64,000 bases of DNA from Alphaproteobacteria bacterium (lineage in GTDB: Bacteria > Pseudomonadota > Alphaproteobacteria > SP197): positions 512,001-576,000 of the forward strand of contig OZ245842.1 in the NCBI GenBank assembly GCA_965228895.1, written 5' to 3'. Positions 7,480-61,367 of the stretch are shown here, one piece after another. The first letter of the stretch is position 1. Each line of letters starts with the position of its first letter. A model generated the notes under the pieces. The model ran no database searches and was not told the origin of the DNA. It worked only from the letters and a program-made list of their open reading frames with translations. The position numbers were made by a program, and so were the translations under genes.

Positions 7480-8979
7480 GTGGCACAACGACGGCGACGC
7501 AACAGTCCGGAGACCGTGGAAGCAACACGGGCGGCGCTGCCTGTGGGCGGTCGCTTTCAGCCGCTGACATCGGGCAAGTCCGGAACGATTGTTCAAGCGG
7601 CGTTCGACATCGTCGAACGCATTGGATTTGCCGACTGCGCGCCGCATCTTGTCGAACTTGCCTGCGCGCAAGGTGCGCAACAGCGGCCTGACGGCCGACT
7701 GACGTTTCCTCGTGGCATGGTCGAAGATGCCCTTGGTCGTGCCGCCCGCAAGGTGGAACTGCCGGGCTTCGTTGTCGACAAAGGTCTCGAGATCGGCGGC
7801 GGCCGTGTTCACATCGGGACCGGCGGTGCGGCGGTCGAGATCCTGGATGCCCACGCCATGGCGTTTCGCGATGCCGGGCTCGACGACCTCTATCGCCTGA
7901 TGCGGATCGTCGGGGTCAGCGACAACATCCACTACGGCGTCCGGCCCGTTGTCGCGCGGGATATGCCGACCCCGTTGGAACTGGACATCAACACGGCCTT
8001 CGCCTGTCTCAAGGCGACCGCGAAACCGATCGGCGTCAGTTTCGATTCAGCGGCGCATATGGCGCCGGTGACACAGCTTTTCGATATGGCGCTTGGCGCA
8101 GACGACAGGTTTCGGGCCCAGCCCTTCTGTTTTGCCGTGATCGTCCACGTTGTCCCGCCTCTGCGCTTCGCGGCAGAGGGTCTGGCCGTTATGGAAGCCG
8201 CGATCCGCGCGGGCATGCCGCTGCAGATTTGCTCGGCTGCCCAGGCCGGTGCGACCAGCCCGGTAACCCTGGCGGGCGCCCTGGCCCAGGGGCTCGCCGA
8301 ATGTCTGGGCGGGCTGATGATGGTCGATCTGATCGAGCCCGGCTTCCCCTGTATCTTCGCTTTCATGCCGTTCATTTCCGATCTCAGGACCGGTGCCATG
8401 ACCGGCGGCAGCGGTGAAGCGGCGGTGGCCAACGCAGCGGCGGCGCAACTGATGCTTGAATTGGGCCTGCCGTCGACCGTGTCGGCCGGCATGACCGACG
8501 CCAAGCTCGCCGATGCCCAAGCTGGTTACGAGAAGGGATACACGGTGGCGCTCGCCGCCCAGGCCGGTGCCGACATGATCAACCTGTCGGTCGGCATGCT
8601 CGGTTCGATCATGGCGGCATCGCCGGAAGCGCTGGTCATCGACAACGACATGTGCGGAGCGATCCTGCGTTCGGTGCGCGGCATCGAGGTGTCGGATGGT
8701 GCGATTGATCTTGAATTGATGGAACGCGTGGTCTGCGGTCCCGGGCATTACCTCGGCGAGGCCCAGACGCTCGCGATGATGAAGTCGGAATACACCTATC
8801 CCGAACTCGGCGACCGTCAGAGCATCGCCGATTGGACCGAAGGCGGCGCGAAATCGATCTGGCAACGCGCAAGGGAGTGCGTCGCGGAGATCGACGGGGC
8901 TGAACCGCCAAGCCATCTGCCCGCCGACCGCGAGGCGCAGATCAGGGCGGCTTTCCCCATTCACCTGCCGACGATGTAG
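7480..8979 (+). CDS. Trimethylamine methyltransferase (MttB) family, non-pyrrolysine
   Basis: HIGTGGAA, QAGATSPVTLAGAL, DLRTGAMTGGSGE, GMTDAKLADAQAGYEK. No in-frame TAG. Confidence 0.88.
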   Translation: MAQRRRRNSPETVEATRAALPVGGRFQPLTSGKSGTIVQAAFDIVERIGFADCAPHLVELACAQGAQQRPDGRLTFPRGMVEDALGRAARKVELPGFVVDKGLEIGGGRVHIGTGGAAVEILDAHAMAFRDAGLDDLYRLMRIVGVSDNIHYGVRPVVARDMPTPLELDINTAFACLKATAKPIGVSFDSAAHMAPVTQLFDMALGADDRFRAQPFCFAVIVHVVPPLRFAAEGLAVMEAAIRAGMPLQICSAAQAGATSPVTLAGALAQGLAECLGGLMMVDLIEPGFPCIFAFMPFISDLRTGAMTGGSGEAAVANAAAAQLMLELGLPSTVSAGMTDAKLADAQAGYEKGYTVALAAQAGADMINLSVGMLGSIMAASPEALVIDNDMCGAILRSVRGIEVSDGAIDLELMERVVCGPGHYLGEAQTLAMMKSEYTYPELGDRQSIADWTEGGAKSIWQRARECVAEIDGAEPPSHLPADREAQIRAAFPIHLPTM

Positions 8980-14818: not shown

Positions 14819-15072
14819 TTCCCTGATACGGCACAAAAACTCCCTGATCGGTGACGAGGTTTCCCTGTTCGGTTGTTTAGGGAACTCTACTTTAGTCTAT
14901 TGAAATGACTGCCGGACCTTGGCCGTAAAACACAGATTTCGCCGAAAGCTGCAAAAGTTCCCTGTGTTTTCCCTGTAAACGGGGAAGTCCCCGCAGAGAC
15001 GGGTTCTATCGAGACTGCCCGCACCGCCATTCTCCAGCACCACCATTCTTCATCATGCAGATTATGTGAACA
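14819..15072. mobile_element. Integrative-element end remnant with dif-like site (copy A)
   Basis: Repeated TTCCCTG boxes, CCCTGTAAACGGGGAA, GAGACTGCCCGCACCGCCA, then ATTCTTCATCA-TGCAGA-TTATGTGAACA (15045-15072). Confidence 0.6.
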
Positions 15073-25403: not shown

Positions 25404-25513
25404 TTCCCTGACGAGCTGAGTTGCTTCCCTGTTAACAGGGAAGTTTCGACAAAGATGGGCTCGCAGTGGACTGCCCGTGCCACCAATTTCCCATAGTGCA
25501 GATTATGGCATGA
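25404..25513. mobile_element. Element-end remnant with dif-like site (copy B)
   Basis: Palindrome TTCCCTGTTAACAGGGAA (25425-25442), GACTGCCCGTGCCACCA, then ATTTCCCATAG-TGCAGA-TTATGGCATGA (25486-25513). Confidence 0.6.
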
Positions 25514-49727: not shown

Positions 49728-49780
49728 TCGATTTGTCGTGAGACGTAGCGCGATCAGAATGCCGATGCGATAGGGTACAG

Positions 49781-49865
49781 CCTGTCAACAGGGAAATCGC
49801 GGCACAGACAAGCTCGCTCGAGACTGCCCGCACCACCACTTTCCACAATGCAGATTATGTGGGGG
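49781..49865. mobile_element. Element-end remnant with dif-like site (copy C)
   Basis: CCTGTCAACAGGGAA, GAGACTGCCCGCACCACCA, then ACTTTCCACAA-TGCAGA-TTATGTGGGGG (49838-49865). Overlaps the mrpG stop. Confidence 0.6.
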
Positions 49866-50217
49866 TTTTCTTGGGCTGTGTGTTGTTGCGTGCTCTGTTT
49901 GTGTCTGCCAGCTCATCAATCGCCATGCCTTTCCACAACGGTACGCCGGTGCGATACGCGGCGCGCGCGATCATGTGTGCGGCGACCGGAGCCGTCAGCA
50001 GAAGGAAGACGATGGCGGCGATGGCGCGGGCGACGATACCGGTCTCGCCAAAGTGGACGGCGACGGCGACGAGGATAAGGCCACAGCCCAGCGTTCCCGC
50101 CTTGGTCGAGGCATGCATGCGGATCAGGACATCCGGCAGGCGAAGCACGCCGAGCGCGGCTGCGAAAGCGAAGAGGCCTCCGGCGATGACCAGCACCGAC
50201 GTGATGATATCGATCAT
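49855..50217 (-). CDS. mrpG: Mrp Na+/H+ antiporter subunit G
   Basis: LRLPDVLIRMHASTKAGTLG, TAPVAAH. Confidence 0.93.
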   Translation of the reverse strand: MIDIITSVLVIAGGLFAFAAALGVLRLPDVLIRMHASTKAGTLGCGLILVAVAVHFGETGIVARAIAAIVFLLLTAPVAAHMIARAAYRTGVPLWKGMAIDELADTNRARNNTQPKKTPT

Positions 50218-50528
50218 GGCTGATCGCCAGCCTTGTCGAAAGGCATGTCGTCGCGCGCGCGTCGGCGTTCGGCGAACCGGGCGAAGGCGACCGTGGCGAG
50301 AAAAGCGATCAGGGCCAGCGCAATGGCGACGTCGAGATAGGCGGGCTCGCCTGACGCAATTGCAAAAAGCGCGCTGAAAGCGACCGCCAGGACAGTCACG
50401 AGGTCAAGTGCGACAACACGATCGGGCAGGCTTGGCCCCCGCGCCATACGCAGCACCGCAAGCACGATTGCCGCGATCAGAAGGGCAAAGGCGATGTCGG
50501 TCGCCGTGGTGAGAATGGGAGAGGTCAT
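50214..50528 (-). CDS. mrpF: Mrp antiporter subunit F
   Basis: RGPSLPDRVVALD, FLATVAFARF. Confidence 0.93.
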   Translation of the reverse strand: MTSPILTTATDIAFALLIAAIVLAVLRMARGPSLPDRVVALDLVTVLAVAFSALFAIASGEPAYLDVAIALALIAFLATVAFARFAERRRARDDMPFDKAGDQP

Positions 50529-50533
50529 GATCC

Positions 50534-51007
50534 TTACTCCAAAGCCGCGAGCACACGTTGCTCGATGCCTCGCTTGAGTTCGTCACGCAGGACCTGCGGG
50601 TCGTCGACGAACATGGCATGGACGTAGAGGGTCTTGCGGTCTTCCGAGATGTCCAGGCTCAGACTACCGGGCGTCAGAGATATCAGGTTGGCAATCATCA
50701 GGATTTCGCCGTCCCGTGTGGCGTCGAGCGGCAACGCGATGATGCCGGGCCGGCTCCTGTGGGTCGGCGTCAAGACGTCCCAAACCACGCGCAAACTGGA
50801 GACAAAGAGCTCATAGATGAACAGGAGCGCGAGACGGATGACCCGCCACACACGCTCGAAATAGCTGGTGTCACCAAACATGGGCTTGGCGGTCCAAAGC
50901 GCGAGGTAACCGACGACGTAACCGATGAGCAGATTGGACAGCGTAAAGCTCCCGGTCAGTGCGGCCCAGCCGAGTGCAAGCGCGGCGTTCAAGGCAAAGA
51001 GGTTCAT
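50534..51007 (-). CDS. mrpE: Mrp antiporter subunit E
   Basis: [17 protein letters not shown]. Confidence 0.93.
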
Positions 51008-52506
51008 GGTGAGCCACCCAGGACGGCGTTGACGTAAGCATCGGGGTTAAGCAGTTGTGCCGCCGAGCGTTCGGCAAACGTGACGAACGGCTCAGGGAAA
51101 AAGCCGATGACCAGGGTCAAGGCGGCGAGCGTGGCGATCGGCGCCAGCAGCTTGATACGATCGCCGGCGTTGAGCATGGTCAGCTTCGGCGACGGGCCTT
51201 CTGGCTGGGGTTTCCAGAACGCCTCGGCCCAGATCTTGGTCATCGAATAGACGGTCAGCAGCCCGACAACCAGGGCAGCGGCTGCGACAACATAGGCGCC
51301 GATGTCGAGGCTCGCCTTGACCAACAGGAACTTGGCCCAGAAGCCTGAGAGCGGCGGAAAGCCGGCAAGCGACAGGGCGGGTATCAGGAACAGAACGGCA
51401 AGCAGGGGGCTTGATTTATAGAGACCGCCCATGTTGTCGAGGTCGAAGCCGTGCGTCAGCCGCTTCGCGACGCCGCTGACCAGAAACAGGTTGGCTTTCA
51501 CGATGATGTGGTGGACCAGGTAGAAGACCGCACCGATCAGGGCGAGCGGCGTAAAGAGCGCCAAACCGAGCACCATGTAGCCGATCTGACTGACGATGTG
51601 GAACGACAGGATCTTGCGGAACTCGTTCTGGGCGGCCGCACCGAGCACGCCGGTGATCATGGTCAAGACGGCGACGACCAACAACAGATCGTGCGTGTAG
51701 TCGGTGTCTGTTGTGAACACCAGGGTAAACATGCGGATCAGGGCGTAGACGCCAACCTTGGTCAAGAGACCGGCAAAGATCGCCGAAACCGCCACCGGCG
51801 GCGTGTGATAGGACGCCGGCAGCCAGAAAAAGAGCGGGAACACCGCGGCCTTGATGCCGAACGCGACAAGGAACAAGACGGCAATGACAGTGACCAGTGC
51901 CTGGTTCTCGACGTCCCCGATGGCGCGGTGCAGATCCGCCATGTTGAGCGTGCCGGTGATGCCGTAGAGCAACCCGATGCCGGTGAGGAACATGGCGGTC
52001 GACACCAGATTGAGGACGACGTACTTGATACCGCCATCAAGCTGCGCCTTGCTGCCGCCCAAAACCAGCAGACCAAACGAGGCGATCAGCATGACCTCGA
52101 ACCAGACATAGAGGTTGAACAGGTCGCCGGTGACAAAGGCGCCGCAGACGCCGGCCAGCAGGACCTGGAACAGCGCGTGGTAACCCAAGGCCTCACGCCG
52201 GGTGTCAATGTCCGCCAGCGCATAGACCGCGACGGCCAACCCGGTGATCGCGGTGATCAGCACCATGACCGCGCTCAAGAGATCGGCGACTAGGGTGATG
52301 CCGAACGGCGCGGGCCAATTGCCCATTTGCGCGGCAATGACGCCGTCTTGCCAGACTGCGATGAACAGCGCGATCGCCACGGCCAGCAGAGCCAGGCAGC
52401 CGCCAATGCTGAGCCAGCGTCCGGCCGCGCCGCGATTGCGGAACAAGAAGACGAGCACGGCGGTCACCAGCGGCAGCATGACGGGCAGCGCGAGAAGCCA
52501 ACTCAT
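51004..52506 (-). CDS. mrpD: Mrp antiporter subunit D
   Basis: [40 protein letters not shown]. Confidence 0.94.
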
Positions 52507-52877
52507 GGGTTCTTGTCCTGCCGATCCGTTTCTGGTTCGGCCACCCGCATACGATCGCCGTCGAGCGTACCGAGCGCACTATAGCTGCGATAGACCAGCA
52601 CAAGCGCGAAGGCGAACAGGCCAAAGCCGATGACGATCGCGGTCAAGACCAAGGCTTGGGGTAGCGCGTTGGCGACCATCTCAGGCGGCGCCGAGAGACC
52701 TTCCGCGATCAGGGGCGGCACCGCGGGCGTCAGGCGTCCGGCGGCAAAGATCGTCAGGTTGGCGGCGTTGCTCAGCAAGACCAGCCCAAACAAAAACCGC
52801 AACACGTTGCGGGCGAGCATCAGATAGACGCTTGCCGCCACCAGAATCCCGACCAGGAGCGCCAGAATCGCTTCCAT
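52503..52877 (-). CDS. mrpC: Mrp antiporter subunit C
   Basis: [14 protein letters not shown]. Confidence 0.94.
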
Positions 52878-52879
52878 GG

Positions 52880-53302
52880 TCAGGCTTCCTCCTCAAGCGC
52901 CAGGACCAGGGTCAGCACGGCGCCGATGACGGCCAGGTAGACGCCGATGTCGAACAGCAAGACCGTGCTGAGCGCCAGACCTTTGGCGCCGTCGCTGCTG
53001 TTACCGAAAATCCACCACTGTCCGGTGAACAGCGGTTCGCCGGTCAGTGCGGGCACCATCCCAGCGACGATAGAGAGGCCAAGGCCGACCATGGCGATGA
53101 CGCGCGGGTCGGCGCGCAGCGCACGGCGTGCCGAACCGGCGCCGTGCGCAATGCCATAGAGAATGAAGCCGATCGACGCGATCAGACCGCCAATGAAGCC
53201 GCCGCCCGGATCGTTGTGGCCGCGCAACAGCATGTAGACCGAGAAAAGCAGCATCAGCGCAACGAGAAGCCGCGTTGCCGTGTTCAAGATCAGCGAATTC
53301 AT
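52880..53302 (-). CDS. mrpB: Mrp antiporter subunit B
   Basis: [20 protein letters not shown]. Confidence 0.94.
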
Positions 53303-55611
53303 CGCGTACCTCTTGCTCTGACGCCGCGCAGCACGGCAAAGGCGCCAAGGGCCGCGACCGCGACAACCACAATTTCACCGAACGTATCGAGTGCGCGGAA
53401 ATCGACGAGGATCACGTTGACGATGTTGCGGCCATAGGCGTCAGGCACGCTGGCAGCCTCGTAATAGGCGGTTACCGACAGGTCGAGGGGACCTTCGGAG
53501 ACGGCAAGCAAGGTCAGCGCGACAACGGCGCCGACCGTGAGCGCCAGAGCACCATCTTTCCAGCGGCAGCGCTTCAAGACGTCGCGCTCGAGCAGAGGCA
53601 GTCGCAGCATGGCAACGGCGACCAAGACGACGACCAGCGTCTCGACCAAGAGCTGTGTCATCGCCACGTCCGGCGCACCGAACATGACGAAGAAGAGAGC
53701 AACGCCGATCCCGACAATACCGAGTGCGCAGATGGCCGTGAGGCGCGACCGGGCGAACGCTGCCATGATGGCGCCGGTCGCGATCAGAACGACGACAGCG
53801 CCGTGCTTGAACAAGATATCCGGCCACGCGGCTGGCCAGCGCACGGCGCCAGTCGCGACAAGCGTAAGGCCAACAGCCAGCGCGAAGCTGGCGAAGATTA
53901 CGAACAGATAGTGCCTGAGGACACCGTGCTGCAGGAACCGTGTCTGTGTCTTGGCGACCAGCTTGAGACCGTCGAGACAGGCGTCCCACGCTCTATCTGC
54001 GGTGACCGGCAAGGCTGTTTCGAGACGGATCAAGAAGGCGCGTAACGTTTGGTGGAAGACATAGATCAGGACGCCGACGGCAAATGTCAGCACGCTTAAG
54101 AGAAGCGGCAGGTTGATGCCGTGCCACAGCTTCAGATTGATGGTTTCCGGCCGGCCGAGAACGGCGGTAACGGCCGGCTGCACCAGGCTTTCGGCAATCA
54201 GCGCCGGCGCCAGGCCGAAGGTGAGGCCAAGAACGGCCAGAAGCAGCGGTCCGATCCACATCCTGAAGGGCGGGTCATGTGGTGTTCCGGCTGTCGGCAT
54301 CGTGGCGCCAAAGAATGGCCTGAGTGCGATGACACCGGCCATGGCGACCATGAGCATGTTCGCGGCGATGGCGGCGGAGGTGACGAAGGCCGGCTCGGCG
54401 GCGATGGCAAGCGCACCTTCGTACTTCAGCTCCTTGCCGATGAAACCCAGAAACGGCGGGAATCCGGCCATGGATAGCGCGGCGGCCACGGCGGCCAGGG
54501 CCGTGATCGGCATCAGTGAGGCCAGGCCGCGCAGCCGATCGGTCTCGCGCGTGCCGGTCTGATGATCGATGACGCCGACTACGAGGAACAGCGAGGCTTT
54601 ATAGAGTGAATGGACGATCAGAAACGTCATGGCGGCGGCGACGGCGACGGTCGCATCGGCGCCCAGAAACATGGTGAGGGTGCCAAGCGCCATGACCGTG
54701 GTGTAGGCGAGTGCCAGCTTCAGATCGGTCTGACGCAAGGCAATGACCGATGCAATCACGGCGGTCAGGGCGCCGACAATGGTCAATGTCCACATCCAGG
54801 CGTCCGTGCCGCTCATCGCCGGATGCATACGTGCCAAGAGGTAGATGCCCGCCTTGACCATGGTTGCGGAGTGCAGATAGGCGCTGACCGGTGTCGGCGC
54901 GGCCATGGCGTTGGGCAGCCAGAAGTGGAAGGGAAACTGTGCCGACTTGGTGAAGGCGGCCGCGAGGATCAGAACGAGGATCGGCAGATAGAGATCATGG
55001 GCGCGAATCACGTCGCCCATGGTCAGGATCTCGGAGAGCTCATAACTCCCCGCGACATTGCCCAACAAGATGAAACCGGCCAGCAGCGCCAGGCCGCCGG
55101 CACCGGTCAGAAGCAAGGCCTGCAGGGCCGCGCGCCGCGCCTTGGCCGAGGCATGGTCGAAACCGATCAGAAGGTACGAGGTGACCGTTGTGAGTTCCCA
55201 GAACACAAACAGCGTGATCAGGTTGTCGGCAAGCACCAGACCGAGCATCGCGACCATGAACATCAGAAGAAAAAGAACGAACCGGCCGAATTGGGCGTGG
55301 CCGGCCATGGAGGCGCCGGCATAGAGCGCGACAAGTGTTCCGATGCCGCTGATCAGAAGCGCAAATGTCAGGCTAAGGCCATCAATCAGAAAGGACGCGC
55401 TAACGCCTAGGCTGGGTACCCAGTCGTGAGCAACCCGGATCGTGCTGCCATCTGCGATCGCGGGTAGGCATGCCGCAAACACGGCCGTCAGCAAGGCAGG
55501 CGGAACCGCACAGAGCCAGCCGAGCGCGGCGCCCTTTGGCGCCGTTCGCGGCGGGCAGGCCTCTTCGTGCCGGTCGATATGCGGACCGCTGCTGGTCATG
55601 CCTGTTGGCAA
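53299..55611 (-). CDS. mrpA: Mrp antiporter subunit A (group 1, separate from B)
   Basis: [58 protein letters not shown]. Confidence 0.94.
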
Positions 55612-55833
55612 TCCTGTTGGCGTTGATGAGAGGGCGACGGCGGTGAAGCAATGACATGATATCAGTCACGGCGTGGGCGGGCGAGAGCGTGCTCGGTTGC
55701 GAACACCGGACACCTTGCCGAAGCGCGGCGCCCCCGCTGAAACGCGGAGGACGCCGCACCCCGCGACACTCGGCCATGTACCGGAGGGAATACACGGTCT
55801 CCCGTCAGGGCTGGATCGGTGTCGAATGGACGG

Positions 55834-56052
55834 TCACGCGTTGAGATGCCGGGCTTGTGCGGGCGGGTTGACCAGTATGGCGCCCATCAGTCTTTCCCAA
55901 GCGTCCATCTCGTCCTTGATCGCCAGCTTTTCGCGTTTGAGTTGCTGTAGGACCAAGGCATCGGGCAGGGGCCGGTTCTGCTCGGCAGTGATTCGACTCT
56001 CGATGGCGCCATGGCGTTCTTTCAAGACACTGTAGCGGGTGTTGGTGGACAT
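55834..56052 (-). CDS. DUF465/YdcH-family small coiled-coil protein
   Basis: RHGAIESRI..RPLPD..LKREKLAIKDEM; RBS-like AGGAAA. Confidence 0.8.
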   Translation of the reverse strand: MSTNTRYSVLKERHGAIESRITAEQNRPLPDALVLQQLKREKLAIKDEMDAWERLMGAILVNPPAQARHLNA

Positions 56053-56369
56053 TGCCGTTTTCCTATCTCCTGTGATGCGGATCAGCCGCGCACCGCTAGG
56101 TGGCGGTCACAAGCCGGTGCTTGTCGTTGCTGGTCGTCAGTTCGGTGAGGCGGTCGAAGAGCGGTCCGCTGTCGTTGCCCGTTGCGCTGTTGACCGCCGC
56201 CGTCGTGGGCTCGTCCAAGACCTCTGTCGCCTCGCTAATGCCGTCGTGTTCGAGGCTTCGCCAAACGACGCCAGTGTCTCACTCCGCCGCAACCGGCACC
56301 CGATCAACATCGCTGACATGGAGATGCGGTGCCACACATGATTGTTCCAATCATGATTTTGATGACGTT

Positions 56370-56388
56370 TGATAGGAAAGCCCTATCA
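56370..56388. promoter_or_regulatory. OxyR-type LysR operator ATAG-N7-CTAT upstream of DUF465-mrp
   Basis: TGATAGG-AAAGC-CCTATCA with perfect 7-bp arms. Confidence 0.65.
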
Positions 56389-56519
56389 TCAAATCATTGG
56401 GGGCTCCGAGACCAACTGCCGGGAACGCCGGCGGGCGCTGTACTATCCAGGTCGACAGTTTTCCTGAAAGGCCCGTGCGCCATAGGCGAAATGGCGGCCG
56501 GCCGACAGTCTTCGGCCTG

Positions 56520-57521
56520 TCACGATGCGGTGGAGGCCTGGTCACTGTAGGCGGATGTCGCCGCGTCAAGCTGGACAGGTGAAACGAAACCCGGCGGTTT
56601 CACGGCGAGAACCGAGCACGCGACCTGGTTCAGGATGGTTTCGGCGGTGTTGCCGATGATCAGACCCTGGATGCCGGTTCGCGCCACCGTTCCCATGACA
56701 ATCAACTCAACACGCTTGCGCTCGGCAAACTCCGGGACGGCCTTGCGCGCGATGCCCTTGCTCAAATGCACCTGGCGCCGCCCGTCGCTGTCGGGGAACC
56801 GCTGCAGCAACTGGTCGAGCTCGACGGCGCTTCGCCGACGTTTTTCCTCAACCAGCATATCCACCTCTTCCGACGCGACGCGCGCGAATCCGCTGTTACG
56901 CAGCATGTCCTCGCCGTCCAGGTTCCAGACATGGATGACATGCAGCTCACTCTCATCGGCCCGCGACAGTGATGTCGCCAGTTCCATGATCGTTGTGTTG
57001 AGTGCGCTCCGCTGCTCGTCCTCTGGATCGGGATCGACGGCGGCAAGAATGCGGGCGTAATGGTGACGATCATTGCGGCGCATGAGCCACACCGGGCAGG
57101 GACATTTTCGCAGCAGATGCAGGTCGGTGCTTGCGAAGAAGAGCGAACCTGCTTCCCATTCTCCCGCGGCACCCTTGATCACGAGGTCATGGCCGTCGCG
57201 CAGAACCTTGCTGATGACTTCGACGAACGGGATCCCCTGCACGACAAACTCGGACGTCGCCACGCCGGCTTCGTTGATCGTTTCTGCGATGCGCCCAACG
57301 TGGGCATGATGAAACTCCTGCACTTCGTGCTCGACGTCGTGCTCGCGCATACCGCGCACGGCGCGGAACAGTTTGCCGAGTTCGCCGGGAGCGGTTTCGA
57401 TCACGTCGATCAAGGTGAGGTGGGCATCGTTGGACTTGGCCAACGTTATGGCGCGTGCAACGGCCGTCTTGTTGATGCTGCGGATATCGCACACCAACAG
57501 AATGTTCCGGAACCTCTTCAT
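56520..57521 (-). CDS. Tandem-domain universal stress protein (UspE-like)
   Basis: DLHLLRKCPCPVW, ILAAVDP, IVMGTVARTGIQGLIIGNTAE. Confidence 0.92.
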   Translation of the reverse strand: MKRFRNILLVCDIRSINKTAVARAITLAKSNDAHLTLIDVIETAPGELGKLFRAVRGMREHDVEHEVQEFHHAHVGRIAETINEAGVATSEFVVQGIPFVEVISKVLRDGHDLVIKGAAGEWEAGSLFFASTDLHLLRKCPCPVWLMRRNDRHHYARILAAVDPDPEDEQRSALNTTIMELATSLSRADESELHVIHVWNLDGEDMLRNSGFARVASEEVDMLVEEKRRRSAVELDQLLQRFPDSDGRRQVHLSKGIARKAVPEFAERKRVELIVMGTVARTGIQGLIIGNTAETILNQVACSVLAVKPPGFVSPVQLDAATSAYSDQASTAS

Positions 57522-57621
57522 GCCTCAGCCCCACACGTGCGTGATCGTTTTTGGGTAGGCCTGGCGGTGGCCAGATTGCGCCGCCGCCGGCGTTCTGATG
57601 TGAGATGGGCTTGAAAAGCTC

Positions 57622-57669
57622 ATTGCTCCAATCGAAGTTAATGGGGATTTCGATAGTTTCCGCCATTCA
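57622..57669. promoter_or_regulatory. Degenerate OxyR-type operator in usp/LysR divergent promoter
   Basis: CGATAGT-TTCCG-CCATTCA, preceded by ATTGCTCCAATC at the same 30-bp offset as ATTGTTCCAATC at 56341. Confidence 0.5.
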
Positions 57670-57672
57670 ACG

Positions 57673-58620
57673 ATGTCAGACACATCAGGAGTAACCGCCT
57701 TGCCAACCTTGCAGCAGCTTCGCTATCTGGTCGCCGTTGCCGACACGCTCCATTTTCGCCGCGCCGCGGAAATGACACACGTCACGCAACCGACATTGAG
57801 CGGTCAGCTTCGCGAGCTCGAGAACAAGCTTGGCGTTCAGTTGGTGGAGCGCAGCCGCGCGAAGGTCATCCTGACTCCGGTCGGCGCGGAGATTGCGGCG
57901 CGTGGTCGAACCGTCCTGCGTGACGTGCAGGATATCGTCGAATTGGCCACACACGGCCATAGCCTGCTCGACGGGACCATTCGCGTCGGCGTTCTGCAGT
58001 CGCTAGGCCCTTACTTTCTGCCGCATATCGTGCCGGATCTTCATCAAAGTTATCCCGACCTGAAGCTCTACGTTCGCGAAGGTATGCCGCAAGCGCTGCT
58101 GAGCGGCATCGATGACGGCAGCTTCGATCTGCTGTTCTTCCCGTTGCCGGTCAAGGGCGCTGACCTCCACACGACGCGGCTGTTTCGTGAGCCCTTGTGG
58201 ATCGTGATGCCGCGGGATCATCACTTGGCGAGCAAAAAGACCATCGATCGATCGGATCTGAAAGACCAAACCGTCCTGACGCTGGAGCGTGGCCATCGTC
58301 TGCACGACCAGGTACAGGAACTTTGCGAGCAGTACCGTGCCAACGTGTCGATGGATTATGAGGGCACCAGTCTGGACACGCTGCGCCAAATGGTCGGCAT
58401 GGGCATGGGGTTGTCGTTTTTACCGGCACTCTACGTCCGGTCGGAGGTTTTGCAGGACGATCAGGTCGTCGTGCGCCAACTGCGCAGCCGCTCGCCGTCG
58501 CGCATGGTCGGCATGGTGTGGCGCCGGCACTCGGCGCGCCAGGATGAGTTCGTTACGCTTGCCGGTTTCGTTCGCGGCGTCATGAAGAGCCGTGTTCCCG
58601 ACCTGACGATCGTTTCGTAG
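57673..58620 (+). CDS. OxyR-like LysR regulator lacking the peroxidatic cysteine
   Basis: QLRYLVAVA..HFRRAAE..VTQPTLS, GTSLDTLRQMV. LERGHRLHDQ where OxyR has LEDGHCLRDQ. Confidence 0.85.
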   Translation: MSDTSGVTALPTLQQLRYLVAVADTLHFRRAAEMTHVTQPTLSGQLRELENKLGVQLVERSRAKVILTPVGAEIAARGRTVLRDVQDIVELATHGHSLLDGTIRVGVLQSLGPYFLPHIVPDLHQSYPDLKLYVREGMPQALLSGIDDGSFDLLFFPLPVKGADLHTTRLFREPLWIVMPRDHHLASKKTIDRSDLKDQTVLTLERGHRLHDQVQELCEQYRANVSMDYEGTSLDTLRQMVGMGMGLSFLPALYVRSEVLQDDQVVVRQLRSRSPSRMVGMVWRRHSARQDEFVTLAGFVRGVMKSRVPDLTIVS

Positions 58621-58667
58621 CGTTGCGTCGGCCAAGTGTCGCGGCGCATGATCGGCGCGGCACAACC

Positions 58668-58709
58668 TGATAGGAAGATCCTATCATCGTCGGCATTGCA
58701 CCCATCAAT
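58668..58709 (+). promoter_or_regulatory. OxyR-type operator upstream of atpB
   Basis: TGATAGG-AAGAT-CCTATCA, followed by ATTG-N7-CAAT (58695-58709). Confidence 0.65.
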
Positions 58710-58772
58710 GCCCACCAACATCTCCTGACGCGAAACATAGCCCACCTTTGCGCATCGGACAGGAGAAGAGGT

Positions 58773-59540
58773 ATGGCTTCCGGCGAGCAGGAAGCGCCAT
58801 ACGCCATAACGCAGTTCGAGATCGACTACCTCGTGCCGATCAATCTGTTCGGCATCGACATGTCGTTCACGACGTCGGCGCAGGCGATGGTGACGACGAC
58901 CCTCCTGGTCAGCGTTTACCTGATCTATGGCATCCGCCAGCGCTCGCTTGTGCCTGGCCGTCTGCAGTCAAGCGTCGAGGCGGTTTATACGTTTGTCGCG
59001 AACACGGTCACGAAAACCGCCGGGCCGCAGGCTGAATCAGCAATACCCTTCGTCTTTTCCCTGTTCGTGTTCATCCTGTTCGGCAGTCTGTTCGGCCTGA
59101 CGCCGGTCAAGTTCACCTTCACGAGCCACCTGGTTGTCACCCTTGCACTGGCGCTTGTCGTCTTTGCCTATGTCAACACGCTTGCGGTGCGCACGCAGGG
59201 TGCCGGTGTCTTTCGTATGTTCTTGCCGGCCGGTACGCCGCTCTACATGGCGCCGCTGATCGTTGTGATCGAGGTGATCTCCTATCTGTTCCGGCCGATC
59301 ACGTTGGGTGTCCGCATCTTTGCCAACATCCTGGCCGGCCATATCATGATCAAACTCTTCGCCGACTTCAGCGTCATGCTGACGGAAGGTTTGGGACTTG
59401 CCGGTATGGCCCTTGCGCTGCTGCCGGTTGCGATGATGGCCGTGCTTTACGGCTTCGAGGTCATGATCTTCCTGGTCCAGGCCTACATCTTCATCCTCAT
59501 TACCTCACTCTACATTCGCGATGCGTTGCATGCGCACTAG
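58773..59540 (+). CDS. atpB: F0 ATP synthase subunit a (orphan copy)
   Basis: VPGRLQS, IEVISYLFRPITLGVRIFANILAGH (essential Arg), QAYIF. Confidence 0.92.
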   Translation: MASGEQEAPYAITQFEIDYLVPINLFGIDMSFTTSAQAMVTTTLLVSVYLIYGIRQRSLVPGRLQSSVEAVYTFVANTVTKTAGPQAESAIPFVFSLFVFILFGSLFGLTPVKFTFTSHLVVTLALALVVFAYVNTLAVRTQGAGVFRMFLPAGTPLYMAPLIVVIEVISYLFRPITLGVRIFANILAGHIMIKLFADFSVMLTEGLGLAGMALALLPVAMMAVLYGFEVMIFLVQAYIFILITSLYIRDALHAH

Positions 59541-59579
59541 CGCATAGCGACGCCAACACCACGGAAAGGACGTTACGAC

Positions 59580-59807
59580 ATGACGGACGACGGCATCAGA
59601 CTGCTTGCGGCTGCCCTTGCATTGCTGCCGCTCTTTGGCGTCGCGCTCGCGTTGGGCAAGATCTTCTCTGATTGGATTTCCTCCGTCGCACGCAATCCCG
59701 GTGCTGGCGAGAAAGTCCAGCCGGTGGGATTGCTCGGTTTCGCACTGACCGAAGCGATTGCGCTCTTTGCACTGATTGTCTCGTTCATCATCCTGTTCGT
59801 GGGGTGA
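59580..59807 (+). CDS. atpE: F0 ATP synthase subunit c (orphan copy)
   Basis: ARNP loop, GFALTEAIALF (carboxylate Glu); AAAGGA RBS. Confidence 0.92.
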   Translation: MTDDGIRLLAAALALLPLFGVALALGKIFSDWISSVARNPGAGEKVQPVGLLGFALTEAIALFALIVSFIILFVG

Positions 59808-59897
59808 CATTTCTGTAGGCATGACGTGAAGATCGTTTCGCGACAAGACCGACTTGTGAACCGCCCATGCCGTCGAATCGGCTGAAACGCCGATCTC

Positions 59898-59922
59898 GCT
59901 TTCCATAATGCTTATGGGGCTG
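59898..59922. other. Possible broken dif-like site (copy D)
   Basis: GCTTTCCATAA-TGC-TTATGGGGCTG aligns to copy C with 3 bp of the spacer missing. Confidence 0.35.
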
Positions 59923-60145
59923 ACCTTCCCACACATCCGGTTCTGACCTGACACGGACTTGGGCAACGGTTCCCTGCTAATTTGGCAGAAAGAATGACAA
60001 ATTTGTGGCCGGTGATTACCATGCTGCCTCTGTCCTGGGAGACAGTACGGCAATTGGTCGGCCTCCCTTGACTGGTTCAATGTTAGCGCGAGTGCATGGC
60101 CGGCCCGTTGATCCCGTTCATAACGATGAATAGGAGGAGGTAACC

Positions 60146-61267
60146 ATGACAACACGCGATCCCGTAGACCAACTTCTGTCTGGTCGAATGGACCGGCGCA
60201 CGCTCAGCAAGACGCTCGGCTCGCTTGGCATCGGCGTTGCAGCCATGCCACTCGTAACACAGGAAGTACGGGCCGAAGAGGAGGAGGCCAACTTCTTCAC
60301 CTGGGCTGGTTATGAGAACCCAATGTTCCATCAGACCTATATTGACAAATATGGTGTCTCGCCCAACGTCACGTTCTTCGGTGGCACCACCGAAGCCAAG
60401 AACAAGATTCTTGCCGGGTACAAGACCGACATTGGTCACCCCTGTTCGGGCGGTGTTACGGAGTGGTATGCGTCCGGCATTATCGTCCCGTTCGATACCG
60501 GCCGGATGAAGTTCTGGAATGACTACTTTGAGCCTCTCAGGAACATCAACTCAACCCTGACGCCGGAAGGCGATCATCTGTTTGTTCCGTGGGACTGGGG
60601 CAATTCATCGATCCTCTACCGCACCGATCTCGTGGAGATCGAGGAAGAATCCTGGGGCCTGCTGTTTGACGAGCGGTACAAGGGCAAGCTTGCGACCTAC
60701 GATTCACCGCAGGCCGGTGTGCAAGTCGCCGCTCAGGTCCTCGGCTTTACGAACCTCGAATCCCTGAGCGACGAGCAACTCGCTGAAGTCAGGACGCTCT
60801 TGGAAAAGCAGCGTTCGCTTTTGCGGTTCTATTGGGAGAGCCAGTCCGAGGCCGGTCAGGCCATGGTCGCCGGCGAGTTGGTTGCGACCTACGCCTGGAA
60901 CGATCTCTACAAGACGGTGACCGATGCGGGGATCCCTGTGACCTATATGTCGCCTAAAGAAGGCGCGCGCAACTGGGTTTGCGGCTTCGTGCTGACCGCC
61001 CCGGAGAACCGGGTTGCCAGCGACGAGCGTGTCTACGACTTCCTCGACGCCATGATGTCGCCGGAAGCCGGCGCCTTCTTGATCGACGAGTACAGCTACG
61101 GCGCAGCCAACAGCAAGTCCTTTGACCTGGTTCCGCCCGAGCGCGTTGCGGAGGTCGGTCTGTCCGATCCCGAAGCCTTCTTGGCGAAGGGCATCCTGCA
61201 GCCCATACCGCCCGAATACGACGAGAAGTACGTCAATCTCTGGGAAGAGGTGAAACTCGGCATGTAG
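60146..61267 (+). CDS. PotD/PotF-like ABC substrate-binding protein (no adjacent permeases)
   Basis: DRRTL signal, FFTWAGYE, PWDWG, SWGLLFDERYKGK, PKEG; AGGAGGAGG RBS. Confidence 0.87.
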   Translation: MTTRDPVDQLLSGRMDRRTLSKTLGSLGIGVAAMPLVTQEVRAEEEEANFFTWAGYENPMFHQTYIDKYGVSPNVTFFGGTTEAKNKILAGYKTDIGHPCSGGVTEWYASGIIVPFDTGRMKFWNDYFEPLRNINSTLTPEGDHLFVPWDWGNSSILYRTDLVEIEEESWGLLFDERYKGKLATYDSPQAGVQVAAQVLGFTNLESLSDEQLAEVRTLLEKQRSLLRFYWESQSEAGQAMVAGELVATYAWNDLYKTVTDAGIPVTYMSPKEGARNWVCGFVLTAPENRVASDERVYDFLDAMMSPEAGAFLIDEYSYGAANSKSFDLVPPERVAEVGLSDPEAFLAKGILQPIPPEYDEKYVNLWEEVKLGM

Positions 61268-61367
61268 CGCCGATGTTGTACACACTGCCGGGCGTGCGCA
61301 GAGCGGGTCCGGCGGTGTGTGCCGTTCCAAATCGCAATGACGTCGTTCAACGCCGTTTGCCTGTCGA

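Follow-up and report, generated by a model that had tools for sequence, protein, structure and literature searches.

This study describes a block of genes at positions 49855-59807 of a 64-kb stretch of alphaproteobacterial DNA (G000:C1:512001-576000, on contig OZ245842.1; hereafter the window, from whose first nucleotide positions are counted unless a genome or locus is named), which comes from a 5.53-Mb genome, G000. The block contains a complete mrpA-G antiporter operon, a gene for a DUF465 small protein, a tandem Usp gene, a LysR-type regulator related to OxyR, and a stand-alone pair of genes for the F-type ATP synthase subunits a and c (atpB2 and atpE2, encoding a2 and c2) that duplicates housekeeping genes located elsewhere in the genome. 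Sequence comparisons indicate that a2 and c2 form a rotor-stator pair of the alphaproteobacterial (mitochondrial) F-type whose members co-evolve and are maintained by selection. We see an even chance that the block as a whole is a horizontally acquired accessory ion-homeostasis regulon that includes a hybrid form of ATP synthase. Genes were called from a listing of open reading frames (ORFs) together with Pfam and NCBIfam profile scans of the window proteins, and the Pfam matches agree with the gene content that a first-pass annotation of the same DNA had claimed for the block (Table 1).

An accessory pair of ATP synthase subunits

A complete housekeeping F0 operon (atpI-atpB-atpE-atpF'-atpF) is present at approximately 151.4-153.9 kb of G000; the only two b-type genes in the genome both lie within it, and a single gamma gene is found at 860 kb. 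The first-pass annotation had allowed that the window pair might be the genome's only atpB and atpE and had called for confirmation of a separate housekeeping locus. That locus is present and the window pair is an extra copy; with a complete F0 operon and the single gamma gene elsewhere, atpB2-atpE2 is therefore not part of a split housekeeping operon. Each of five other carrier genomes has a single housekeeping a gene and a single a2 gene. Among the window ORFs and in the Pfam scan, no b, delta or F1 genes were identified in or beside the block, and because the next plus-strand gene after atpE2 encodes a solute-binding protein (with a gamma-glutamyltranspeptidase gene downstream of it), none follows the pair. 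The genome also encodes a V/A-type ATPase in addition to the F-type enzyme, in an operon at G000:C1:4676443-4684030 (L008 4443-12030) comprising B, D, an I-like subunit, a double-hairpin c/K subunit and A.

At the protein level, identity to the corresponding housekeeping subunit is 43% for a2 and, over 58 residues, 47% for c2. On the alphaproteobacterial subunit-a model NF004482, a2 scored 275.5 bits (cut-off 225), compared to 44.2 bits on the altF1_A model of N-ATPases (cut-off 302.1), while the alternate-c model of N-ATPases gave no match to c2 at E <= 1e-5. These failing alternate-a and -c models, in a block without any other atp gene, rule out a remnant of an N-ATPase operon. The c2 protein reached 45.9 bits on Pfam PF00137 (cut-off 24) and 62.2 bits on the alpha-type c equivalog NF005733, below the cut-off of 85; the housekeeping c scored 87. 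The essential Arg of subunit a is found in the penultimate long helix of a2 together with the neighbouring Asn and His, and the surrounding stretch, GVRIFANILAGH, is conserved in 17 of 17 a2 rows, a few of which have Leu or Val for Ile. Similarly, Glu58 and the R38-N-P loop are kept in 18 of 18 c2 sequences.

A maximum-likelihood tree placed 17 a2 and six housekeeping sequences on opposite sides of a branch with 100/100 support. Ratios of nonsynonymous to synonymous substitution (dN/dS; NG86, against relatives) were 0.09-0.21 for a2 over four pairs and 0.02-0.11 for c2 over the nine of 12 pairs that were computable, the other three being saturated in dS; these ratios are rough because all dS values were near or above 1, and they indicate that both proteins are under purifying selection. 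Nine a2 columns are invariant within the clade and differ from housekeeping a (for example K113, Y133 and D198), and a four-residue insertion precedes the last helix pair of a2. Given the topology of subunit a, K113, D198 and the insertion would lie on the periplasmic side.

The most conspicuous difference between the two c types concerns the first helix. Six of six housekeeping sequences have the motif G20-x-G22-x-G24-x-G26, whereas helix 1 of the window c2, like that of most c2, reads G20-x-A22-x-A24-x-G26; across the 18 sequences, Ala is found at position 22 in all 18, at position 24 in 16 and at position 20 in two. Further c2 marks are Pro17, Lys or Arg at position 27, and Asp or Glu at position 31 followed by Trp32. 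When placed by the conserved Arg, this motif probably shares its register with the AxAxAxA motif of Bacillus. In reports on B. pseudofirmus OF4, the Ala motif is described as relaxing helix packing and giving a c13 ring, with Ala-to-Gly double mutants forming c12, and larger c-rings as beneficial at low proton-motive force (PMC4453477, PMC2914638). The substitution of Ala for Gly in helix 1 of c2 thus points to a changed ring geometry and probably to a larger ring. Sodium coupling was also considered for c2, in which Ala and Ile follow Glu58 and Leu occupies the relevant helix-1 position. Rings that bind Na+ have polar ligands at that position.

Distribution, synteny and repeats

Neighbouring genes were counted by tblastn with the window proteins in 17 related loci (a2 60-84% identity), which were obtained by a pattern scan with one genome per species and belong to records of Pelagibius, Kiloniellales, Minwuiaceae, Hyphomicrobiales and Dongiaceae. 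The atpE2 gene directly followed atpB2 in all 17 loci, lysR and usp were each found in 11, mrp in 10 (all among the 13 loci that had 5 kb or more of upstream sequence), and DUF465 in five. Conserved synteny of mrp, usp, lysR, atpB2 and atpE2 in other genomes, on which the first-pass annotation had made its proposal depend, is borne out by these counts, and the full block is carried by the cultured species Pelagibius litoralis DSM 21314 (locus L018). The 17 loci gave no match to the housekeeping atpF, atpF' or atpI, and downstream of atpE2 they share no conserved gene except between near-identical pairs. A broad protein search for a2 listed 120 clusters at >=58% identity, among which every named public record was called simply 'F0F1 ATP synthase subunit A' or 'F-type H+-transporting ATPase subunit a'. 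Six of the related loci have a small ORF of 77-108 amino acids between the LysR box and atpB2, whose product begins like a signal peptide and has (W/Q)(L/I)PGT(L/W) as its core and Cys-Ala-(Leu/Trp)-(Val/Ala) at the C-terminus; this ORF is absent from the window and had no tblastn match in G000.

The mrp genes of the window show the features of a group 1 Mrp antiporter, with seven separate Pfam families in order and overlapping or abutting frames along 49855-55611 on the minus strand. A second MnhG/MrpG gene at G000:C1:2494333-2494569 indicates a second Mrp locus at 2.494 Mb; together with the housekeeping a and c genes, this makes the block's antiporter and its a/c pair accessory copies alike. 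The best model for the tandem Usp was NCBIfam UspE, at 169 bits, under the cut-off of 227.

Within the window's order (33 genomes, one family, five genera), a2 was found in G000 alone, and the other 32 genomes contain only the housekeeping type, which is 39-48% identical to a2. An even sample of 400 other Alphaproteobacteria yielded a2 at E <= 1e-75 in a single genome, G277 (80% identity). The window a2 is 72-84% identical to the a2 of Kiloniellales-like carriers, compared to 57-63% between the housekeeping a proteins of the same genomes; in the tree, the path to the nearest a2 measures 0.26, and the housekeeping a of G000 sits on a branch of 0.65. Since the spread is patchy and a2 is nearer to that of another order than the housekeeping a is, these data fit a horizontal acquisition of the block by the genus, for which a difference in evolutionary rate is the weaker alternative explanation. 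A second genome of the same genus, G004, carries mrp-DUF465-usp-lysR (G004:C398:8229-19151, L032) at 85% nucleotide and 88-93% amino-acid identity to the window, followed directly by the transpeptidase gene, and the corresponding region of G005 contains the transpeptidase gene only.

The first-pass annotation had described the block as a mobile module flanked by dif-like sequences. Such sequences are present: the dif-like hairpin TTTCCACAATGCAGATTATG terminates the left repeat, which overlaps the stop codon of mrpG, and the left (49840-49862) and right (59900-59920) hairpins share TTTCCAYAATGC...TTATG. However, they are members of a genome-wide repeat family rather than sites of the module. 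The family has at least 15 copies in G000, which are intergenic and mostly between convergent genes, and its full copies (~95 nt) consist of a TTCCCTGTTAACAGGGAA hairpin, a GGCAG...CTGCC stem and a terminal CCATAATGCAGATTATGG hairpin. The copies are restricted to two regions, on the plus strand at 345-562 kb and on the minus strand at 4.21-4.25 Mb, both being ~0.8-1.0 Mb from the GC-skew minimum (5.04 Mb) and symmetric about the GC-skew origin. Neither the 17 related loci nor the regions compared in G004 and G005 yielded a copy, the right copy of the window falls within the segment absent from G004 (see below) and not at its border, Rfam gave no match to the repeat, and a repeat search found no long repeats bounding the block. 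The pattern corresponds neither to a single terminus site nor to paired sites that bound the block wherever it is present, as would be expected of Xer/dif, and the repeats are not attachment sites travelling with the module; the genome-wide family and its absence at other loci speak against dif-mediated mobility. Of the mobile module proposed at first, the horizontal acquisition thus fits the distribution, while mobility by way of the dif-like sequences is unsupported. Breaks in synteny with G004 and G005 fall at one copy (49774) and within ~200 bp of another (14964), so that the repeats may indicate where rearrangements took place in this strain. The true dif might be a related single site at genome position 2598517 (-).

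Operator boxes and the LysR-type regulator

Exactly two copies of the pattern ATAG-N7-CTAT are present in the 64-kb window (56372 and 58670; shuffle mean 0.24), and its extended form TGATAG-N7-CTATCA has only two sites in the 5.53-Mb genome, both in the block. The intermediate form GATAG-N7-CTATC has three genomic sites, two of them in the block. The first-pass annotation had placed a related box at all three promoters of the block; two of these are perfect OxyR-type operator boxes, unique in the extended form and recurrent in relatives, and the third, in the usp-lysR gap, is a degenerate candidate at a place where relatives have TTCGATAG-N7-CTTTCGAA. Across the 17 related loci, 25 of the 27 boxes with at most one mismatch were located within the module, at the same three types of gap, and a box preceded atpB2 in 11 of the 16 loci having upstream sequence. 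In L014, L016 and L017, a single box region lies between divergent usp-mrp and atpB2 units. The third GATAG-N7-CTATC site of the genome (G000:C1:2681471; L051 2972-2988) lies ~50 nt upstream of an isocitrate-dehydrogenase-like gene, and could be a target of either OxyR-type regulator or a chance occurrence.

A second palindrome, ATTGyTCCAAT, accompanies the box at a fixed spacing of 30 nt on the gene-proximal side in both the mrp and the usp promoters, and the pair of motifs is conserved in G004 amid otherwise diverged DNA. The exact pattern ATTGnTCCAAT occurs four times in the genome. LysR tetramers usually bind two sites approximately three helical turns apart, which is the layout seen here. 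A leader of ~290 nt (56053-56340), not conserved in G004, separates the operator from the DUF465 start codon in the window, and the distance from box to DUF465 is far shorter in relatives (~80-115 nt in L009 and L019). Between box 1 and DUF465, a 66-amino-acid ORF (56137-56337, minus strand) was not called a gene because its DNA is unconserved in G004 outside the operator region. Scans returned six promoter-like sites (2.2 expected) and 11 terminator-like sites (7.8 expected), none of which helped to place the promoters.

The closest solved relative of the LysR-type regulator is Pseudomonas aeruginosa OxyR (4x6g, E 6.6e-61), and its best NCBIfam model is also OxyR, at 240 bits under an equivalog cut-off of 329. 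The first-pass annotation had called the protein cysteine-less; one Cys was found, at the position of OxyR C208, and the position of the peroxide-sensing C199 is occupied by Arg in the window, in G004 and in 10 of 12 orthologues from other loci, the other two, which are distant, having Ala and Gln. With Arg at that position, the protein would be unable to form the C199-C208 redox switch. A canonical OxyR with both Cys residues is encoded at genome position 2632739-2633653. Within the window's order, the module LysR was found in G000 and G004 only, all other hits being at most 40% identical.

Table 1. Positions of the genes, operator motifs and repeats of the block, with other repeat copies and related small ORFs (window positions unless a locus is named)
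Feature	Position	Strand	Remarks
mrpG	49855-50217	-	Pfam
mrpF	50214-50528	-	Pfam
mrpE	50534-51007	-	Pfam
mrpD	51004-52506	-	Pfam
mrpC	52503-52877	-	Pfam
mrpB	52880-53302	-	Pfam
mrpA	53299-55611	-	Pfam; NCBIfam PRK12647, 1009 bits (cut-off 937)
DUF465 small protein	55834-56052	-	PF04325, E 9.1e-12; heads the leftward mrp transcript
Tandem Usp (UspE-like)	56520-57521	-	PF00582, two stretches, E 9.4e-33
LysR-type regulator (OxyR paralogue)	57673-58620	+	Arg at C199 position, Cys at C208 position
atpB2 (accessory F-type subunit a, a2)	58773-59540	+	ATP-synt_A, PF00119, E 1.7e-51
atpE2 (accessory F-type subunit c, c2)	59580-59807	+	ATP-synt_C, PF00137
Solute-binding protein gene	60146-61267	+	Next + strand gene after atpE2
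Box 1, TGATAGGAAAGCCCTATCA	56370-56388		Upstream of DUF465-mrp; conserved in G004
Box 2, TGATAGGAAGATCCTATCA	58668-58686		Centre 96 nt before atpB2 start codon
Box 3, GATAG-N7-CATTC (degenerate)	57652-57668		usp-lysR gap; ends 4 nt before lysR start; conserved in G004
Second palindrome, ATTGTTCCAAT	56341-56351		Starts 30 nt before box 1, gene-proximal side
Second palindrome, ATTGCTCCAAT	57622-57632		usp side of box 3, same 30-nt start-to-start spacing; identical in G004
Repeat copy, full (~95 nt)	49774-49867	+	nhmmer, genome 561774-561867, E 2.1e-24
Truncated hairpin, TTTCCATAATGC then TTATGGGGC	59900-59920	+	3 nt missing; 93 nt after atpE2 stop
Other repeat copy	14964-15068		
Other repeat copy	25420-25512		
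Small ORF, L010	9315-9641		
Small ORF, L012	9482-9742		
Small ORF, L014	5455-5739		
Small ORF, L015	9642-9950		
Small ORF, L017	5544-5831		
Small ORF, L018	9604-9837		

Elsewhere in the window, positions 8491-8590 on the plus strand match the Rfam family PYLIS_3, the pyrrolysine insertion sequence of mttB (45.1 bits, gathering score 38), and this match probably lies within an MttB-family methyltransferase gene.

Proposed function, alternatives and significance

The arrangement suggests a regulon in which a dedicated LysR-type protein, an OxyR paralogue without the redox switch, would bind the GATAG-N7-CTATC operators and control three units: DUF465 with the second Mrp, the tandem Usp divergent from lysR, and atpB2-atpE2. 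Since the genome contains no other b, delta or F1 genes, a2 and c2 most likely use the housekeeping ones, joining that b/b' stalk and F1 in an alternative version of ATP synthase. The Ala-substituted c2 ring would probably be larger and would then have a higher H+/ATP ratio, a property of use at the low proton-motive force that goes with alkaline or saline stress, where Mrp works. In its most specific form, the proposal is that the non-redox OxyR paralogue, within one regulon, swaps the c-ring and its matching a in the housekeeping F1Fo for a ring of different size and so raises H+/ATP as the second Mrp is switched on; we put this forward tentatively, as possible but doubtful.

Several known systems resemble parts of this arrangement. 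Alkaliphilic B. pseudofirmus OF4 is likewise reported to combine Ala for Gly in c helix 1 with reliance on Mrp and ATP synthesis at low proton-motive force (PMC4453477, PMC2914638); however, the adapted a and c genes of Bacillus exist only once, in a single atp operon, whereas the block provides an extra pair beside a normal set, with its own regulator. The N-ATPase (atpDCQRBEFAG) is also a second F-type membrane set that has spread horizontally beside the normal ATP synthase (PMC5709465), but its operons encode all subunits and the block only a and c. In Photobacterium profundum SS9, the environment is similarly reported to select the form of ATP synthase, although there two whole operons are involved, while the block duplicates only the rotor ring and its stator partner (PMC10054830). 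A further paper, PMC12421958, is unrelated. In the literature searched, no accessory a/c pair linked to Mrp or LysR was found, the supplementary transcription-unit tables of PMC5709465, which might include a-c units, being outside the search. With respect to regulation, OxyR and the block LysR share the ATAG-N7-CTAT operator type and a gene divergent from its target, but OxyR has both C199 and C208, whereas the block LysR has Arg at the former and scores under the OxyR cut-off. In Escherichia coli, the LysR-type regulator NhaR adjoins and controls the Na+/H+ antiporter gene nhaA; NhaR belongs to a different LysR subfamily and NhaA to a different antiporter family, and the regulon is not known to include ATP synthase genes.

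A number of observations weigh against the proposed regulon and its ring exchange. The promoter scan found no clear sigma-70 promoter adjoining the boxes. PxxExxP in c helix 2 and Lys at Arg+8 in a are reported as alkaliphile marks in Bacillus (PMC4453477), and the block has neither: the c2 stretch, ALTEAIA, lacks Pro, and Gly stands at Arg+8 of a2. Only two of the four helix-1 motif positions are Ala in most c2. Ring size, moreover, is not readable from sequence across species. The link between Mrp and a2/c2 is not obligatory, given that G004 lacks window positions 58631-61305 (2.7 kb, containing atpB2, atpE2 and the solute-binding protein gene) and that the most distant loci, L021, L022 and L024, have a2/c2 and no mrp within their flanks. 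In L021 (4508-5224) and L022 (7075-7791), both Hyphomicrobiales-type, a Dps/ferritin-like gene adjoined by GATAG-N7-CTATC boxes is found beside the C199-less OxyR paralogue and atpB2-atpE2, which hints at a stress signal different from the one presumed here; the separable parts and the Dps neighbour count against a strict functional unit of Mrp and a/c. Because the order lysR-atpB2-atpE2 is usual elsewhere, a loss of a2/c2 in G004 would be more parsimonious than a gain in G000.

There are several potential explanations for the a/c pair other than an exchange of ring size. The genes could encode isoforms or spare subunits for times of stress, which are built into the normal ATP synthase and leave its coupling ratio unchanged, serving for example in replacement, dosage or tolerance of an altered membrane, with Ala only tuning ring stability. 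All the catalytic residues and the F1-contacting loop are retained, the module has no stalk or F1 genes of its own, and the partial Ala motif without the other alkaliphile marks also agrees with this explanation. Nevertheless, we consider it rather unlikely, since the a2 and c2 clades are old and distinct, as seen in the fully supported split and the nine invariant columns of a2, Ala22 is invariant in c2, and the long-term joint maintenance of a and c argues for an altered rotor-stator interface.

It is also conceivable that a2 and c2 form a regulated proton conductor free of F1, with or without the host b, that returns protons or dissipates membrane potential alongside Mrp; the absence of b, delta and F1 genes in or beside the module in 17 of 17 loci and the co-location of the pair with a proton-importing antiporter are in its favor. 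The R-N-P loop of subunit c contacts the central stalk in F-type enzymes, and its retention in every c2 sequence, the costly leak that an uncoupled a/c pore would represent, and the lack of any precedent in the literature searched make this explanation improbable. Finally, that the genes are unrelated neighbours, brought together by chance adjacency, as half of a split housekeeping operon or as an N-ATPase remnant, is hardly credible: G004 and three distant loci do show the parts existing apart, but a complete housekeeping F0 operon lies elsewhere, the N-ATPase models are missed by far, the synteny recurs in 10 loci of several families, and the shared operator is unique in the genome.

The number of c subunits fixes the H+/ATP ratio of an ATP synthase and is considered constant for a given organism. 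If the proposed ring exchange is true, a regulated second rotor-stator pair would mean that one bacterium holds two coupling ratios and chooses between them, and the old question of variable coupling would become directly testable. The block also points to a regulator of the OxyR family that has left redox sensing for ion-homeostasis genes, and its three promoters with one operator type would make a compact regulon for experiments. More generally, these findings hint at an ability of some bacteria to remodel their ATP synthase in response to ion or pH stress.

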